A stretch of 4,823 nt of DNA, from IMG/VR virus record IMGVR_UViG_2703718815_000008, one strand, 5' to 3'. The stretch comes from a virus. Its lineage: Duplodnaviria > Heunggongvirae > Uroviricota > Caudoviricetes. The translations under genes and the position numbers were made by a program. The notes under the pieces were generated by a model. That model did no database searches. It saw only the letters and a list, made by a program, of their open reading frames with translations, and had not been told where the DNA came from. Shown piece by piece: positions 1 through 4,823 of the stretch; within the stretch, counting starts at the first letter, position 1, and each line of letters begins with the position of its first letter.

Positions 1-61
1 CACCTTCGGGTGGCACGAAAACTGCTGTAATGCAATGAAAAATAATGGATTATTTTTCGCG

Positions 62-90
62 TTGTCCACATATTGCCATAGTGATCTAAT
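62..90 (+). promoter_or_regulatory. Candidate sigma70 promoter for the DUF4177/yidD-like pair (TTGTCC-N17-TCTAAT)
   Basis: Seen in sequence: -35-like TTGTCC (62-67), 17-nt spacer, -10-like TCTAAT (85-90), about 70 nt upstream of the first start codon. The -35 also resembles a DnaA-box (TTGTCCACA vs TTATCCACA). No experimental support. Confidence 0.3.
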
Positions 91-629: not shown

Positions 630-640
630 GCGCGTAAGAA

Positions 641-680
641 AAAGAAAACCCGCAGTTTTTACGCTGCGGGTTTCTGCTTT
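641..680. terminator. Bidirectional rho-independent terminator shared by the yidD-like operon (+) and the hok mRNA (-)
   Basis: Stem CCCGCAG (649-655) / CTGCGGG (664-670) with 8-nt loop, flanked by an A-tract (641-648) and a T-rich tract (671-680), so it gives a U-tail on either strand. Confidence 0.7.
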
Positions 681-726
681 GGGATGTGTATAGGGTGCCT
701 TATCGGCCTTACCCTGGCAACCGATT

Positions 727-750
727 GACGGGGAAGTTGCCTTCCCCGTC
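727..750. other. Perfect 10-bp stem / 4-nt loop hairpin in the hok 3' UTR (probable mRNA-stabilising or fbi-region stem-loop)
   Basis: GACGGGGAAG-ttgc-CTTCCCCGTC, perfectly complementary arms, immediately downstream of the hok stop codon on the - strand. On the + strand it is followed by GCGGTTTTCTT, so it could also act as a + strand terminator. Confidence 0.5.
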
Positions 751-759
751 GCGGTTTTC

Positions 760-900
760 TTACTGTCTACATTGTAAGAACGCCGCAAACTCCGCTCCCC
801 AGAAGCTCATCCGTATCTCACACAGTGAACCGTGTAGCATCCAGATGATGAGGATTGCCGTTACGCAGAACGTAATGGCCGTAAGCGATTTTTGCGACAT
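760..900 (-). CDS. hok: Hok/Gef-family type I toxin (46 aa), absent from the ORF track because it is under the length cut-off
   Basis: Reverse-complement translation: MSQKSLTAITFCVTAILIIWMLHGSLCEIRMSFWGAEFAAFLQCRQ. One N-terminal transmembrane segment followed by SLCEIR and E.AAF motifs, as in Hok of plasmid R1 (..SLCEIRYRDGHREVAAF..) and E. coli HokA/HokC. SD-like AAGGAG about 8 nt upstream. Confidence 0.85.
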   Translation of the reverse strand: MSQKSLTAITFCVTAILIIWMLHGSLCEIRMSFWGAEFAAFLQCRQ

Positions 901-1003
901 AGCGCTTGCTCCTTTTTCGGGGAGGCGCTAACCTACGACTTGCGAAGGTTGTATGGCTAGGGCCTCGGGTTAACGTTAAAGTTGACTCGGGGCCTTTCCA
1001 CAT
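818..1003 (-). CDS. mok: mok-like overlapping reading frame (modulation of killing) of the hok locus
   Basis: 61-codon frame starting at ATG 1003 and overlapping the first 83 nt of hok in a different frame, as in mok/hok of R1. Its start lies upstream of the conserved leader hairpin, unlike R1, so the exact start is uncertain. Confidence 0.4.
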   Translation of the reverse strand: MWKGPESTLTLTRGPSHTTFASRRLAPPRKRSKRYVAKIAYGHYVLRNGNPHHLDATRFTV

Positions 1004-1008
1004 TCGGC
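941..1008 (+). ncRNA. sok: Predicted Sok-like antisense RNA (about 65 nt)
   Basis: Inference by analogy to R1 Sok. Candidate + strand promoter TTGCTC (906-911)-N17-TAACCT (929-934), TSS near 941. Imperfect hairpin 961-994 (GGCCTCGGG...CTCGGGGCC) followed by a U-rich stretch (995-1004). Antisense to the hok leader and mok start. Boundaries approximate. Confidence 0.3.
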
Positions 1009-1053
1009 CTTCGGGTATTCCCTCCAGCCATCAGCCGAAAGGCACCCGCGCGA

Positions 1054-1083
1054 ATTCTAGCCTGGTTTTTTCCCTTGTTTCAA
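1054..1083 (-). promoter_or_regulatory. Predicted hok promoter (TTGAAA-N18-TAGAAT on the - strand)
   Basis: -35 TTGAAA (rc of 1078-1083), -10 TAGAAT (rc of 1054-1059), giving a TSS near 1048. The predicted 5' end GGGUGCC (rc of 1041-1047) is perfectly complementary to GGCACCC (rc of 693-699) in the 3' UTR, matching the tac/fbi end-pairing typical of hok mRNAs. Predicted mRNA about 400 nt, as for R1 hok. Confidence 0.45.
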
Positions 1084-1087
1084 TCCG

Positions 1088-1117
1088 TTGAGACTTATCA
1101 GCCTTCTGATGTAAAAT
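1088..1117 (+). promoter_or_regulatory. Candidate + strand promoter divergent from the hok promoter (TTGAGA-N18-TAAAAT)
   Basis: -35 TTGAGA (1088-1093), -10 TAAAAT (1112-1117) with TG immediately upstream. Would give a transcript of about 64 nt ending at the 1164-1187 terminator. Confidence 0.3.
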
Positions 1118-1163
1118 TCCCGACCGCAGACATTATTCAGTCACGCATTTGATACATGCTTCC

Positions 1164-1187
1164 GCCGGCGTTCGCGCCGGTTTTTTT
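1164..1187 (+). terminator. Rho-independent terminator (+ strand)
   Basis: GC-rich stem GCCGGCG (1164-1170) / CGCCGGC with loop TTCG, followed by T7 (1181-1187). On the - strand there is no U-tract after the stem, so it is oriented for + strand transcripts. Confidence 0.6.
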
Positions 1188-1355
1188 CGTCCTGTTGCTG
1201 CATAGATCGTCATGCGCGATCGAGGCGCGGTATTGATCCTTTTTTCAGTTTAATTTTGACTCTCAATTTTACGCAGGCCGCGCCGCGTCTGGCTTCGTTG
1301 TTTGACGATTTTTTGATGCGATCCTTTCGTGATCGTTTCCCGTCTCGCGTAAAGT

Positions 1356-1613: not shown

Positions 1614-1665
1614 GCATACAGCGCCGGAATGGCACGCAGAACGCATTAATCAGGTGGTGGATATG

Positions 1666-1692
1666 AAAAACGCACGGTCGGAACCGTGCGTT
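1666..1692 (-). terminator. Rho-independent terminator of the - strand operon (downstream of the 565-aa gene)
   Basis: Stem AACGCACGG (1669-1677) / CCGTGCGTT (1684-1692) with loop TCGGAA. On the - strand the stem is followed by a U5 tract (complement of A1666-1670), about 40 nt after the stop codon at 1731-1733. Confidence 0.55.
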
Positions 1693-1730
1693 GTTTGATG
1701 GGGCGTTTATGTGGGTTTTATGTCGGGAGC

Positions 1731-3428
1731 TCAGGCGATAAGGTCGCCGTATTTTTCGCGCAGGCTCGTAGCCTGCAGGGCATCTGCGGCAAGTTCGCCG
1801 CTGTTCATTGGTGCGCCAGTGTTGTTGTGGGTGTGGTTTGCTGTGTGCGTGGCCAGCAATTGAATCAGATCCAGAATATCAATCAACAACGTCAGCAGAT
1901 TAAGTTCGGATTTTTCCCGTGAGCCACCGCGACCAATAAATACTGTCGGGGCTGTAAACTTCAGACCGCCGTCCGCCCGGCATGTTCTGCGGCCTCCCAC
2001 GTTTTCAGTCAGGTCCTGCTCAATTGTGGATATTGTCCCTTTGAGTTTAGTCAGCAAATCCTGCGCTACCATCTGGATATGCTCGCTGGCTGCGATCGCG
2101 TAATGGCCGGTAGTAAGGTGCTCTATTTGTCCTGCCGCCAGCTTGCTGGTTCCCAGAACACTGGTTATGTCGTTTGCCCGTACTGTGGTTGTTCTGGTTG
2201 TTGTGGTGCGCTCTTCTGCATCACTGTTAATTGTGCGGGTGGCTGACTGCTCCCTGATTTGCTGGTCTGTTTCTCTGTGCCAGCTTCCGTCAGTCGTGAC
2301 GCGCTGAAACACTTCTGCGCGCTGTTGCTGCAGTTGTTCGCCGGGCTTTACATCAGGCAGGTTATGGCCAGCAGGTAAGATTTGCCTGATAACAGGTTTA
2401 TCCGGGCGCCCTTCAATGTTAGATATTTCCACGATGGTGCCTGCCGGCGGGTAGGCAAAACATCCCGCCTCGCTACCAGCCATCGGGACGGGGAGTGGGA
2501 CTGCCGGGTAAACAGGCGTATCGCTTTTATCGTTGCCGTCCTCATCGAGCAGTTGCACGTCCACGGCGTAGCGTGGACGGAAGCTGTCGGCCACATCGCC
2601 CAGGGTGGCGGATTCCGTTGGTGCAATGACGCGCGCCAGCCTGGTGTGTAGTGTGCCGCTGGCCAGTTCCGGGAACTGTGTTTCCATCTGTCTGCGTAAT
2701 GGTGATTTGGAGACAGGGCTGCCCGTGACGGTAAGGCGCTCCCACGTCAGAGTCATTTTCTCGTTGTTGAGGGCTACGCGGGTAATACGCCCGGTGGGAA
2801 GATTCACGCCCGGTCGCACAGTTTCCATGAACATGATGTCGATGCTGTTTCCGCCGCTTTGCCCGAGAGCGTACTGTTGCGGAATATCCGGCATCGTAAT
2901 ACTGGCAAATCGTGAATCAGCGGCGCTTCCCACAAATACAGAACCGTCCGGCATTGGGTGCCAGACGTAATCGCTGATACTGAATGCGCGCCCCAGCTGG
3001 CTGAGTAGCTGCGTTCCGCTGCCGCTGTGGGTGATGTAGGGGGTTGGTGTGTTGACATAATCCGCGTCCGGGGTGATAAAAACGATGCCGCTTTGTCGTC
3101 CCAGATTATCTAACACCTCCCGCAACGTCGGGTGTTGCATGGAGCAGGGGAAATCAAAATCCAGCACAGCAGCTGCTTCACGGATAAAAAGGCGGCGCGA
3201 ACCATTTTCGGCGGGTTGGTCGCGTTCAACGTAGCCGGAGAAATAGCGCCAGACTTCACCGTCACGGCCGAGATCAATTTGTACCATTGCGCCGGCAAGG
3301 CTTTTTTCTGGTGACAGATTATTAACAGAAATGAAGCCACGACCGGCAGCATTCAGGGTAAGAACAAGGCTTATATCGGCAATTTCCACCCGTTCGCCAT
3401 TAATCATGCAGCGTTGTATCAATTTCAT
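1731..3428 (-). CDS. Hypothetical 565-aa protein; tentatively a phage-tail-like structural protein (baseplate hub/spike- or fibre-like), last gene of the operon
   Basis: Long ORF with strong RBS GAGGAAGGG and an ATGA start/stop overlap with the upstream gene. No Walker A motif, no signal peptide. Thr-rich tract TTTTRTTTV and His-rich C-terminal segment LIQLLATHTANHTHNNTG (HxH-type motifs occur at metal-binding tips of trimeric phage spikes and fibres). An N-terminal segment, FSGYVE...TLREVLDNL...GIVF, loosely resembles gpD/gp27/VgrG hub motifs. Product is inference only. Confidence 0.8.
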   Translation of the reverse strand: MKLIQRCMINGERVEIADISLVLTLNAAGRGFISVNNLSPEKSLAGAMVQIDLGRDGEVWRYFSGYVERDQPAENGSRRLFIREAAAVLDFDFPCSMQHPTLREVLDNLGRQSGIVFITPDADYVNTPTPYITHSGSGTQLLSQLGRAFSISDYVWHPMPDGSVFVGSAADSRFASITMPDIPQQYALGQSGGNSIDIMFMETVRPGVNLPTGRITRVALNNEKMTLTWERLTVTGSPVSKSPLRRQMETQFPELASGTLHTRLARVIAPTESATLGDVADSFRPRYAVDVQLLDEDGNDKSDTPVYPAVPLPVPMAGSEAGCFAYPPAGTIVEISNIEGRPDKPVIRQILPAGHNLPDVKPGEQLQQQRAEVFQRVTTDGSWHRETDQQIREQSATRTINSDAEERTTTTRTTTVRANDITSVLGTSKLAAGQIEHLTTGHYAIAASEHIQMVAQDLLTKLKGTISTIEQDLTENVGGRRTCRADGGLKFTAPTVFIGRGGSREKSELNLLTLLIDILDLIQLLATHTANHTHNNTGAPMNSGELAADALQATSLREKYGDLIA

Positions 3429-4000
3429 GTTTTCCCTTCCTCTTTCACGCTCCCGATGCCAACAGCATCCAGACCAGAGCCAACGGCATCATTGATTTTT
3501 TTCCAGAACGAACTTTGCGTATTCATGCCTTTGTCTGGTGCCTGTTCGCTACCGTTCTGGGTCTGCTGTCTGGCGATGGTTTTCTGCGAACCGCTGCGTG
3601 CGGATGCTTTCTCTGGCACGCTTAATTTTTCCCTGAGAGTAAAGGTAACCTGCCAGTGCATTTTTCCCTGTTGTTCCGTGGCATCAATGCCACCAGAAAA
3701 TACCCCCTGTCGCATATTGATTGCCTTCGCGGTAGCGTTAGCAATGCGATATGTTTTTTTAGCACCGTTGCTTTCTGTTGCCTCCGCAAGCTGAAAAATA
3801 CGGGTCAGAATAGCTTCATCATTAAAATCAATAACCCCCGACACGCGCAGCTCTTTAGCCTTGTTTCCCTGCTGGGCGCTCGTGGTGCTGGTTGACTGTC
3901 CGGACATATCTTTGTCCGGTAGTTGCATGGTGGCGCTGACGGTGATGTTGCGCAGCAGAATGGCTTCCCCGTCAAGCGCAAGGACAATCATCTGGGTCAT
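3425..4000 (-). CDS. Hypothetical 191-aa protein (Ser/Thr/Gln/Gly-rich; possibly a phage-tail-associated structural protein)
   Basis: ORF with excellent RBS AAGGGAGG 7 nt upstream of ATG 4000. Stop overlaps the start of the 565-aa gene (ATGA). No signal peptide, transmembrane segment or nucleotide-binding motif. Product unknown. Confidence 0.75.
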   Translation of the reverse strand: MTQMIVLALDGEAILLRNITVSATMQLPDKDMSGQSTSTTSAQQGNKAKELRVSGVIDFNDEAILTRIFQLAEATESNGAKKTYRIANATAKAINMRQGVFSGGIDATEQQGKMHWQVTFTLREKLSVPEKASARSGSQKTIARQQTQNGSEQAPDKGMNTQSSFWKKINDAVGSGLDAVGIGSVKEEGKT

Positions 4001-4685
4001 GTAGTGCCTCCCTTAGTGATGAGAGATTATCGCCGACGAACAGCATCACAGCTGTAAAAACCCACTCGGGGTGTGGGATGTTTTTTTGTATCAGCACTGC
4101 AGCCTGGCTAAGGGCTCCCTTGTAGCAAAAGCGCCACACCGGGCAAAATTTTTGCCGGAGTGCAGCCTGCTGATCAGCGATTTCCTGTAAGGCTTTATCT
4201 CTCGCATTCATGAACTGATGCAGTGATGATGACAATGTTTCCGGTGATGTGGCGGCAGGAGTGGCTGCCTGTGCAATGGTTGCCGCCAGCGACATGCTGC
4301 GAGTGGTCTGTGTCGACAGCATTATCGGTTCCGGAAGTGATGTTGCCGGTCTGGCGGGGATTTGCATTCTGCTGATGGCCAGTGAAAGCTGGCTGGAGAT
4401 CATGCGGGACATTCGTCCCACCTCCGGCAACGGAAATGCGCCTGAAAATTGCCTGGCGAGTGATAAAAACTCGCCAGCAGAAGGAGCGCAAAATAACAGC
4501 GCCACAATGTCCTTTTCTGTGTTTTCTTTCAGATAGGGTAAAAGTGCAGATACAGCATTTTCGGGGCTGAGATAACGCCCCGATGGTTTGATGTTTCCGG
4601 TATTTTCTGACCATGGATGCAGGCAAACCACAGAGCATTTAATGTTCATGGCTGACGGGCGCAGAATTGCCTTTTCCCATTTCAT
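3972..4685 (-). CDS. Hypothetical 237-aa protein with two domains joined by a low-complexity Ala/Thr/Ser/Pro linker
   Basis: ORF with RBS GGAGAG. Start overlaps the stop of the upstream gene (ATGA) and the 3' end overlaps the 191-aa gene by 29 nt in another frame. No recognisable catalytic motif. Product unknown. Confidence 0.7.
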   Translation of the reverse strand: MKWEKAILRPSAMNIKCSVVCLHPWSENTGNIKPSGRYLSPENAVSALLPYLKENTEKDIVALLFCAPSAGEFLSLARQFSGAFPLPEVGRMSRMISSQLSLAISRMQIPARPATSLPEPIMLSTQTTRSMSLAATIAQAATPAATSPETLSSSLHQFMNARDKALQEIADQQAALRQKFCPVWRFCYKGALSQAAVLIQKNIPHPEWVFTAVMLFVGDNLSSLREALHDPDDCPCA

Positions 4686-4823
4686 TCTGACTCTCCAGCC
4701 TGAAAAGCGCGGATGTCGGCAAGATTATTAAGGCTATCCAGCACGTCCTTCATCTGTCGCTGACGGCGATAAATCTCGTCATTGCGATCGACCTGCGCCT
4801 GCGCCATTGCTGCCGCCAGTTCT
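4682..4823 (-). CDS. 3' end of an upstream gene (5'-truncated by the window edge); C-terminus predicted alpha-helical and charged
   Basis: Open frame running to the window edge and ending ...ELAAAMAQAQVDRNDEIYRRQRQMKDVLDSLNNLADIRAFQAGESQN with stop TGA at 4682-4684 overlapping the next start (ATGA). Coiled-coil-like composition; it could be the end of a tape-measure-like or scaffold-like protein, but that is speculative. Confidence 0.6.
   Translation of the reverse strand, partial: ELAAAMAQAQVDRNDEIYRRQRQMKDVLDSLNNLADIRAFQAGESE

Follow-up and report, generated by a model that had tools for sequence, protein, structure and literature searches.

Experiments on toxicity, on neutralisation by Sok and on RNA half-life have been carried out for two type I toxin-antitoxin systems of the hok/sok kind, hok/sok (parB) of plasmid R1 and hokW-sokW of Sakai prophage 5 (Sp5) (PMC9841398, PMC8621323). 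The mechanism of the former, a system shared with other IncF plasmids, has been summarised (PMC9841398). The latter resides on a lambdoid Stx2 phage, and experiments showed both its toxicity and the neutralisation of this toxicity by its antisense RNA (PMC8621323). HokW is 51 amino acids long, starts with MKQQKAM and is 44% identical to R1 Hok (PMC8621323); it belongs to a subfamily other than that of the 46-aa peptide, starting with MSQKSL, which is the subject of this report. Loci encoding such 46-aa Hok/Gef peptides are found in prophages of E. coli, E. albertii and Salmonella, in phage P88, in Xuanwuvirus (Peduoviridae) and in Stx phages. Their records annotate the peptide only and not the RNAs, and a search of the literature found neither toxicity or RNA half-life experiments for this subfamily nor anything specific on its occurrence in P2-like prophages.

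The window analysed here, a stretch of 4,823 nt from a viral record (IMGVR_UViG_2703718815_000008), carries a locus of this kind at positions 640-1083. We consider it very probable (about 90%) that this locus is an intact type I toxin-antitoxin cassette of the hok/sok family and that it is cargo of a P2-family prophage, placed at the prophage end; like hokW-sokW, it would be a prophage-borne system. The cassette is of the RNA-controlled hok/sok type, real and intact. Since many E. coli genomes and phages already carry annotation of the same cassette, its recognition in the window is a correct call and not a discovery, and a hok/sok cassette of this kind is already known. The 46-aa loci named above share 85-95% DNA identity with it over 639/690-1071, encode peptides 72-100% identical to that of the window, display the same layout of tac and fbi elements, hairpins and promoters and, as in the window, are positioned at the end of P2-family prophages. 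These close homologues carry annotation already: in RefSeq E. coli genomes they are named 'Hok/Gef family protein' (72-98% identity for the peptides so named), and in phage records (P88, Xuanwuvirus and Stx phages) 'MokW-like host killing'. The original prediction holds in nearly all its points. It described the toxin gene as one missed by the open reading frame track; the gene does lie below the ORF-length cut-off applied at that first stage, but public annotation pipelines do call it. The case indicates that sequence alone is enough to recover a short toxin gene below such a cut-off and the RNA partners that lack annotation; beyond correct annotation the significance of the case is small, and it identifies this end of the window as cargo of the prophage.

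The cassette travels as a unit among P2-like phages, Stx phages, plasmids and different chromosomal sites, and in some genomes up to nine places matching it were found by a DNA search, while the search of plasmids returned only 35 records of the 46-aa subfamily. In several of these contexts, homology to other loci stops within a few nucleotides beyond the fbi element. In the window, a P88-like left flank (DUF4177 and a YidD-like gene) is joined to a different tail module on the right, and the genome context places the cassette among cargo genes at the prophage end. The neighbouring operon, previously described as uncharacterised and as ending at the cassette, can be identified as a P2-family prophage baseplate/tail module, and therefore the 'mobile segment' which the cassette had been proposed to stabilise is the prophage. 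The operon ends with a terminator of its own at about 1665-1700, which lies some 600 nt ahead of the hok promoter. The counts out of 34 given below refer to an alignment of 34 cassette homologues, a closely related set drawn from different genomic contexts; two further loci were left out: in one (L093) a pattern search picked up no hok ORF, and in the other (L094) a second leader follows a different hok copy.

The hok gene is located at 760-900 on the minus strand and encodes a Hok/Gef membrane toxin of 46 residues, MSQKSLTAITFCVTAILIIWMLHGSLCEIRMSFWGAEFAAFLQCRQ. Its assignment to the Hok family, as originally proposed, is confirmed by a match to Pfam HOK_GEF (PF01848) of 30.0 bits against a curated gathering score (GA) of 22 (E = 4.1e-7), in which residues 7-44 align to positions 5-42 of the 42-position profile, and by a match over the full length of the peptide to PHROG 251 (E = 4.2e-22), a family which bears the hokW-sokW name. 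A hydrophobic stretch, TAITFCVTAILIIWML, occupies residues 7-22 in the N-terminal part; in an alignment with R1 Hok, residues L26-C27-E28 are invariant or nearly so, and C44 is present. Of the R1 and chromosomal Hok sequences in this alignment, that of R1 was verified. A size of about 50 aa, a hydrophobic helix, an L-C-E motif and a later Cys characterise Hok/Gef peptides, and all four are seen in the window peptide. Codon differences summed over the homologues amount to 200 synonymous versus 45 non-synonymous changes, a ratio indicating that the peptide is under purifying selection. R1 Hok is 52 aa long as compared to 46 aa for the window toxin, and the two are 28% identical. Among the named NCBIfam subfamilies the best score was obtained for the HokA equivalog NF007290 (32.9 bits versus a cut-off of 89; E = 5e-8); the Hok subfamily NF007279 was not reached either, at 21.3 bits versus a cut-off of 73. 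In the alignment, a provisional sequence of the chromosomal HokA of E. coli K-12 was about 41% identical to the window peptide. The latter is not HokA, its score falling far short of the equivalog cut-off, and it belongs to the wider Hok/Gef family but to neither the NF007290 nor the NF007279 subfamily.

A DNA search of plasmids found no similarity between the window and R1-type loci, and the comparison with R1 was therefore made via the protein and by reading an R1-type locus (L090). The order of elements is the same in both: a promoter, tac, the Sok-target hairpin, a GAGGC...GCCUC stem, a sok promoter over the hok ribosome-binding site, hok, a GC-rich 3' hairpin, fbi and a terminator-like hairpin. 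The carrier differs, a plasmid for R1 hok/sok and a prophage for the window. The Rfam hok/sok model RF01794 matches both loci, with 87.2 bits for the R1-type locus and 36.7 bits for the window. The match in the window lies in the leader (1047-887, minus strand), covers all of the model (positions 1-157) and begins exactly at the predicted +1. A search with this model had been suggested along with the original prediction, and its outcome is a significant full-length match (E = 8.8e-6) which nevertheless stays under the GA of 59 bits.

The 5' end of the hok mRNA had been proposed as GGGUGCC, and a promoter scan yielded a sigma-70 promoter on the minus strand that fits this proposal: a -35 of TTGAAA (1078-1083) and a -10 of TAGAAT (1054-1059), with an 18-nt spacer and agreement with the consensus at 10 of 12 positions, set +1 at about 1047. 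Nearly all of the 34 homologues have TAGAAT or TAGATT as their -10, and most have TTGCCG instead of TTGAAA at the position of the -35. The window mRNA begins with GGGUGCCUUUCGGC, and the hokW mRNA with GGGUGCUUGAGGC (primer YO-351). Judged by the positions of promoter and terminator, the full-length transcript should run from GGGUGCC to the terminator T run, a predicted length of about 408 nt (640-1047, minus strand), and its fold (-174 kcal/mol, z = -7.5) was equalled in none of 100 shuffles. The intrinsic terminator at 645-674, with a 10-bp stem, is bidirectional as had been claimed; it is common to the hok mRNA on the minus strand, where the T run is good, and to the DUF4177/YidD-like operon on the plus strand, where it is weaker. 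It is found in about 20 of the 34 homologues, and in some of the others it is replaced by other terminator-like hairpins. Further Rfam matches in the region (Thr leader, Spy1786666, isrK and snoRNAs, E = 0.4-10) fell on the terminator and the hairpins and were treated as chance. A candidate small RNA at about 1122-1192 on the plus strand was also considered and rejected: it has a promoter and a terminator, but its fold is no better than those of shuffles (z = -1.4), and no Rfam match was obtained for it.

The first bases of the mRNA form a tac-like element, GGGUGCCUUUCGGCU (1033-1047, minus strand; mRNA +1 to +15), which aligns to position 1 of RF01794 and which in the full-length fold pairs with an fbi-like element near the 3' end, GGCCGAUAAGGCACCC (693-708, minus strand). 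The complementarity of the two ends, initially put at 7 nt, proved to be longer: 693-701 and 1039-1047 constitute a 9-nt perfect inverted repeat, and in the minimum-energy fold the helix comprises 15 bp with one bulge. By chance, about 0.05 occurrences of this 9-mer are expected in the window; two were seen, a number reached in one of 200 shuffles. Over the 34 homologues the helix is 98.4% paired, with changes that preserve the pairing, and its outer part has been rebuilt as CGAU/AUCG in Salmonella diarizonae and as UCGGCUG/CAGCCGA in the Stx-phage copies. An apparent double compensatory change at alignment column 87 in one homologue (L007) was, on inspection of the sequence, partly due to an alignment shift, and only the CGAU/AUCG replacement was retained. 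A long-range tac/fbi pairing that would close the full-length mRNA is hence both predicted by folding and conserved. Between the hok stop codon and fbi, an inverted-repeat search located the 10-bp perfect stem-loop reported earlier (727-750, with arms 727-736/741-750 and a 4-nt loop, minus strand); a GC-rich hairpin is found at the same place in the R1-type locus. This stem-loop, in which seven homologues display a compensatory GC to AU change and the Stx phages a further variant, is likely to be the stop for 3' exonucleolytic trimming. The support provided by covariation is modest, because most helices barely vary in such a closely related set of homologues.

The ribosome-binding site of hok is an AGGAG at 909-913 on the minus strand, read from the sequence 8 nt before the AUG, and in the full-length fold it is paired with CUCC. 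When the mRNA was folded with its 3' end at 722 or 712, positions +1 to +11 paired with +49 to +59 and the segment from +60 to +80 opened; the hok ribosome-binding site was then largely free, and the putative mok site still partly paired. This alternative tac stem is 99% paired across the homologues. The folding models thus predict that, once the 3' end is gone, the 5' element acquires a different partner, the Sok target opens up and the hok ribosome-binding site is released from pairing. A switch of this kind between full-length and truncated forms has been described for R1 (PMC9841398).

The hairpin at 961-994, which had been noted for its resemblance to the Sok-target region of R1, was recovered by both Rfam alignment and folding. 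In the mRNA, where it corresponds in the alignment to the second hairpin of RF01794, it would constitute the Sok target; on the plus strand it would be the body and terminator hairpin of Sok, with 16 bp and -30 kcal/mol. A predicted sok promoter can be read on the plus strand at 906-934, with a -35 of TTGCTC (906-911), a 17-nt spacer and a -10 of TAACCT (929-934), and its -35 overlaps the hok ribosome-binding site on the opposite strand. The layout is that of the R1-type locus L090 (TTGCGC, 17 nt, TATCCT). Compared with the consensus this promoter is weak, matching it at 3+3 of 12 positions by our own count, and a consensus scan of the region did not call it; it is supported since its position is homologous to that in R1 and both hexamers are invariant in the 34 homologues. 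From the fold of all alleles we infer both ends of the Sok RNA, which is predicted to run from 942 to about 1000 on the plus strand. The predicted RNA is about 58-62 nt long instead of the suggested 65 nt, and its 3' end is uncertain. Its predicted layout consists of a single-stranded 5' tail of 12-17 nt, the 16-bp hairpin and UUUCC, and it is complementary to the mRNA from +48 to +106. The Sok terminator, which has only three U (UUUCC) after the hairpin, was not called by a terminator scan.

By analogy with R1, and with the support of the folding, a mode of action can be proposed. The 408-nt mRNA would be made in a closed form, with its 5' end locked by pairing to the 3' UTR, a hairpin enclosing the Sok target and the hok ribosome-binding site paired, and in this form it would be neither translated nor bound by Sok. 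Slow trimming from the 3' end to the 10-bp hairpin would take away fbi; the 5' element would then switch to +49 to +59, opening the Sok target and releasing the hok ribosome-binding site. As long as the cassette is present, short-lived Sok (about 60 nt, plus strand) would pair with the active mRNA and bring about its decay or a block of translation. Once Sok synthesis stops, Hok would be made and would damage the inner membrane; such a stop could follow when the prophage is induced, excised or lost, or when an infecting phage shuts off transcription.

The role of the cassette could be prophage addiction, exclusion of other phages or assistance to lysis on induction, the last of which has been demonstrated for hokW-sokW of Sp5. 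We put at only just under even the chance that it serves mainly in phage exclusion (abortive infection) or in lysis timing, and not in addiction against prophage loss. Pecota and Wood reportedly observed in 1996 that R1 hok/sok reduces T4 growth, and the placement of the cassette with prophage-end cargo genes is also in line with exclusion or lysis; against this, PADLOC contained no model matching the peptide or its neighbours. An increased phage release after mitomycin C induction has been described for hokW-sokW of Sp5 (PMC8621323), which points in the same direction, although HokW is of a different Hok subfamily and acts in a lambdoid phage. The sequence does not discriminate between these roles. 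In a carrier strain, the curing of the prophage, its lysis after induction or resistance to other phages may be influenced by the cassette.

A mok-like frame overlapping hok had been part of the original prediction. A leader ORF of 61 codons is indeed present at 818-1003 on the minus strand; its AUG is at mRNA +45, a GAAGG at 1008-1012 may serve as its ribosome-binding site, and the overlap with hok amounts to 83 nt. It is not, however, at the position homologous to R1 mok, nor is it conserved as an overlapping frame in most close homologues; no match to it was found in Pfam or PHROG. R1 mok starts after GAGG within the Sok-complementary region, whereas the only leader AUG of the window is upstream of the Sok-target hairpin, just outside the Sok-complementary segment +48 to +106, and the window is without a start codon at the R1 mok position. 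This AUG is kept in 33 of the 34 aligned homologues, yet the frame reaches hok in only 12; in about 22 the frame from the same AUG stops 27-68 nt (mostly 27-48) before the hok AUG. Because the frame is misplaced with respect to R1 mok and mostly non-overlapping in close homologues, the coupling step may differ from that of R1.

It is accordingly conceivable, and we hold it as a tentative reading somewhat short of an even chance, that the cassette is active with hok translated directly from its own strong ribosome-binding site (AGGAG) and no mok coupling, Sok mainly triggering decay of the processed mRNA and the 61-codon frame being incidental. Besides the missing start codon downstream of GAGGC and the early termination of the leader frame in about 22 of the 34 homologues, this is favoured by the spacing of the hok ribosome-binding site, which at 8 nt is better than the 11 nt of the R1-type locus, and by the truncated fold, in which the hok site is freed and the putative mok site partly paired; the chance expectation of a 61-codon open frame is roughly 5% by our own estimate. 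Opposed to direct translation is the retention in nearly all homologues of the AUG at 1003 and of GAAGG 4 nt upstream of it, as is the location of this AUG at the edge of the Sok-complementary region. Conservation of these bases is ambiguous, since the same bases form the Sok hairpin and tail. A short leader ORF ending just before the hok-site hairpin could, in addition, still couple translation by unfolding that hairpin.

Of the internal parts of the cassette, the Sok-target segment varies most, with a pairwise identity of 0.74-0.82 versus 0.92-0.95 in the flanks, as is expected of a specificity determinant. The hairpin is present in every allele, built by different inner-stem sequences; the alleles include the window type, which is the less common one, and the GGAAAACAU type. 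One joint reading of these data, which we regard as rather doubtful, is that the 46-aa prophage Hok subfamily has lost canonical mok, with Hok translated directly or coupled by hairpin unfolding only, and that its Sok-target/Sok segment comes in at least two or three hairpin alleles that differ in their tails. Such allele differences could prevent cross-neutralisation among cassettes of co-resident prophages. Both the diversity of Sok-target alleles and the variability of the mok-like frame could be modestly interesting for those who work on type I toxin-antitoxin systems.

Four of the five hok loci of E. coli K-12 are inactivated, and Pedersen and Gerdes are said to have found in 1999 that many chromosomal hok loci of laboratory E. 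coli are inactive. That the cassette of the window is, like most of these K-12 loci, hok/sok by descent but an inactive relic with weak or no transcription and no effect on the cell, as its Rfam and NCBIfam scores below the curated thresholds, its weak sok promoter and the variation of the mok-like frame across homologues might suggest, is highly improbable in the face of elements that are all intact and uninterrupted, a peptide under purifying selection, two alternative pairings of the 5' element that are both kept in the 34 homologues from different genomic contexts, and the movement of the cassette as a unit among phages, plasmids and chromosomal sites.

An ORF search of the window identified a 46-aa hok frame on the - strand (760-900), the product of which scored 30.0 bits against Pfam HOK_GEF (gathering score 22) and matched PHROG 251 ('MokW-like host killing') along its full length (E 4e-22). 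The NCBIfam models matched weakly (HokA, 32.9 bits, cut-off 89; Hok, 21.3 bits, cut-off 73), placing the peptide, on sequence grounds, within the Hok/Gef family and outside any named subfamily. A protein search returned close relatives only (72-98% identity), all 'Hok/Gef family protein' of E. coli, Shigella, and Salmonella, and one IMG/VR viral contig encodes the identical peptide. Identity to R1 Hok, the sequence of which was confirmed against thousands of plasmids, is 28%, with an L-C-E motif common to both. Codon differences in hok, summed over alignment rows that are not independent events, were 200 synonymous versus 45 non-synonymous. A search of genome contigs also found copies 72-96% identical on contigs labeled as a Planococcaceae MAG, Vagococcus sp. 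(226 kb), and Xanthomonas pisi (857 bp) (L002, L003, and L006); assembly mislabeling or enterobacterial contamination seems more likely here than true hosts.

When the entire window was scanned against Rfam by E-value, the sole significant match was to RF01794 (sok), on the - strand at 1047-887, covering 157/157 model positions with 36.7 bits; this is below the gathering score of 59, and the R1-type plasmid locus read beside the window scores 87.2 bits. The hok promoter called by a promoter scan (TTGAAA, 18 nt, TAGAAT; 10/12 positions) lies at 1083-1054 (-), and the +1 predicted from it, 1047, is the exact start of the Rfam alignment. The RF01794 match has an E-value of 8.8e-6. The hok/sok locus of the original prediction is real and was correctly interpreted. 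The initial 9 nt of the predicted mRNA (tac) are perfectly complementary to 693-701 in the 3' UTR (fbi); this 9-mer occurs twice in the window, as compared to about 0.05 expected occurrences, and two were reached in one of 200 shuffles. In the lowest-energy fold of the complete predicted mRNA (408 nt), the tac/fbi pairing comprises 15 bp with one bulge; folding of the entire RNA has z = -7.5. Hairpin and terminator scans recovered, as earlier described, a 10-bp 3' hairpin (727-750, -) and a terminator (645-674) that serves the hok mRNA (-) and on which the + strand genes converge.

Cassette matches were found in 1756 of 5426 complete E. coli genomes, and in 220 phage records versus only 35 plasmids. 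When 34 distinct copies were aligned, the conserved part began at the -10 hexamer and ended a few bases beyond fbi, and the flanks on either side fell into unrelated sequence classes; this stretch is therefore the mobile unit. The tac/fbi helix is 98.4% paired in the 34 copies, nearly all changes being G-C to G-U. More distant copies carry other outer helices: Stx phages have UCGGCUG/CAGCCGA, and S. enterica diarizonae has CGAU/AUCG, versus UCGGCU/GGCCGA in the window. The 3' hairpin displays GC to AU compensation in seven sequences and another variant in Stx phages. The E. albertii plasmid pEA5_1 (L094) has another type of small Hok-like ORF (MSYSNIF...LCEL...); right behind it comes the start of a second, window-type leader, GAGUGCCUUUUGGUUGAUGGCUGGAGGG, and this may represent two tandem hok cassettes.

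In the full-length fold the 5' and 3' ends of the mRNA are locked to each other, a closed hairpin (+54..87, numbered from 1047) holds the Sok-target region, and CUCC pairs with the hok AGGAG. RNAs truncated at 722 or 712, from which fbi is removed, folded with a changed 5' domain: +1..11 paired with +49..59, +60..80 was single-stranded, and a GAGGC...GCCUC stem appeared, the loop of which (CUUCGCAA) is complementary to the predicted Sok 5' tail, while the hok ribosome-binding site was mostly unpaired. This open form is the counterpart of the RF01794 consensus structure, and the same switch logic has been described for R1 hok mRNA (PMC9841398). The alternative tac stem (+1..11/+49..59) is 99% paired across homologues; because it hardly varies among them, the modeled stem is compatible with the switch, short of proof.

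The predicted sok promoter (TTGCTC, 17 nt, TAACCT; 906-911 and 929-934, +) is positioned like TTGCGC, 17 nt, TATCCT of the R1-type locus, and in both the -35 overlaps the opposite-strand hok ribosome-binding site. Both hexamers are poor consensus matches and were not called by the consensus promoter scan; they are unchanged in 34/34 homologues. The predicted Sok, starting at about 942 (+), would begin with 12-17 unpaired nt, followed by a 16-bp hairpin (-30 kcal/mol) and then UUUCC. All alleles keep a hairpin here, with differing inner stems: the window type has UUAAC/GUUGA, the common type AAACA/UGUUU. Within the cassette, no internal part varies more than the Sok-complementary segment (pairwise identity 0.82, and 0.74 for the tail target, versus 0.92-0.95 in neighboring segments), a pattern that fits a specificity determinant. 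The target region (942-1003; alignment columns 121-192) contains at least two hairpin alleles and several tail variants in cassettes otherwise 92-95% identical. In some E. coli genomes the cassette matches at up to nine places. The pattern suggests that copies have diversified in a way that prevents cross-talk among those sharing a genome.

A mok-like overlapping frame, also proposed originally, is present (61 codons, 818-1003, -, overlapping hok by 83 nt); its start is unlike that of R1, and the overlap is absent in about 22 of the 34 homologues. The R1 mok start follows GAGG inside the Sok-complementary region, where the window has no start codon, whereas the window's frame opens with an AUG (+45) that precedes the Sok-target hairpin. 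This AUG is kept in nearly all 34 homologues, the frame ending 27-68 nt (mostly 27-48) before the hok AUG in those lacking the overlap, and in the window's subfamily the hok ribosome-binding site is well placed (8-nt spacing). Translation of hok may therefore be either direct or coupled to the leader ORF.

The neighboring 'uncharacterised operon' turned out to match baseplate and tail families. On the right, the - strand carries genes for phage baseplate and tail proteins, including a baseplate protein gene (1731-3428; 565 aa, PHROG 2258, weak VgrG/gp5 OB-fold matches) and an HP1 ORF34 baseplate protein homologue (3425-4000, family match). One RefSeq genome lists the 565-aa protein as 'type VI secretion system Vgr family protein', while others have it as 'hypothetical protein'. 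The genes at 1731-4807 (-) overlap at their ends (3425-3428, ATGA; 3972-4000, 29 nt; 4682-4685). As this operon has its own terminator, read from the sequence at about 1665-1700 (-), hok/sok is a separate cargo unit some 600 nt further. In E. coli AJ1 the block extends into an entire P2-family prophage, in which hok comes last and host DNA follows on the flk side; serS adjoins the equivalent end in strain A36, phage P88 (Peduoviridae) carries the cassette and a DUF4177 gene at the end of its genome record, and in many prophage contigs of IMG/VR just 3 nt follow the hok stop codon. The cassette may counter prophage loss as an addiction module, keep out other phages, or aid lysis on induction, the last shown for the distinct hokW-sokW cassette of Sakai prophage 5 (PMC8621323). 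The cassette is known, and its protein already carries annotation; mildly new are only where the mok-like frame lies, how variable that frame is, and the range of Sok-target alleles.

No convincing ORF lies in the approximately 650 bp that separate the hok promoter from the baseplate gene stop (1072-1730), a stretch 94-97% conserved in E. coli prophages sharing the tail module; the best candidate has 88 aa, a TTG start, and no family match. Within it, at 1088-1190 (+), a sigma-70 promoter (1088-1117; TTGAGA, 18 nt, TAAAAT; 10/12) diverges from that of hok and is followed by an intrinsic terminator (1164-1181) and T run; the putative transcript of about 65 nt had no Rfam match and folded no better than shuffles (z = -1.4). 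On the other side, two small + strand genes overlap and converge on the hok terminator. The one at 161-403 is DUF4177-like (Pfam 22 bits, below the GA of 25; PHROG 12383, E 2e-40), and the one at 396-629 encodes a YidD-like membrane-protein insertion factor (Pfam 64 bits). The block at about 15-1071 is 87.5% identical to the P88 end and is absent from complete E. coli genomes sharing the window's right-hand part. A YidD homologue beside a membrane toxin gene on a phage is a curious pairing. The 3' end of the YidD-like gene (614-627, +) contains ATGTCGCAAATCGT, in which the hok start ATGTCGCAAA (891-900) is repeated 10/10 in opposite orientation and which resembles the leader segment UCGCAAGUCGU (935-945) at 10/11; these repeats may be an old rearrangement trace, or chance.
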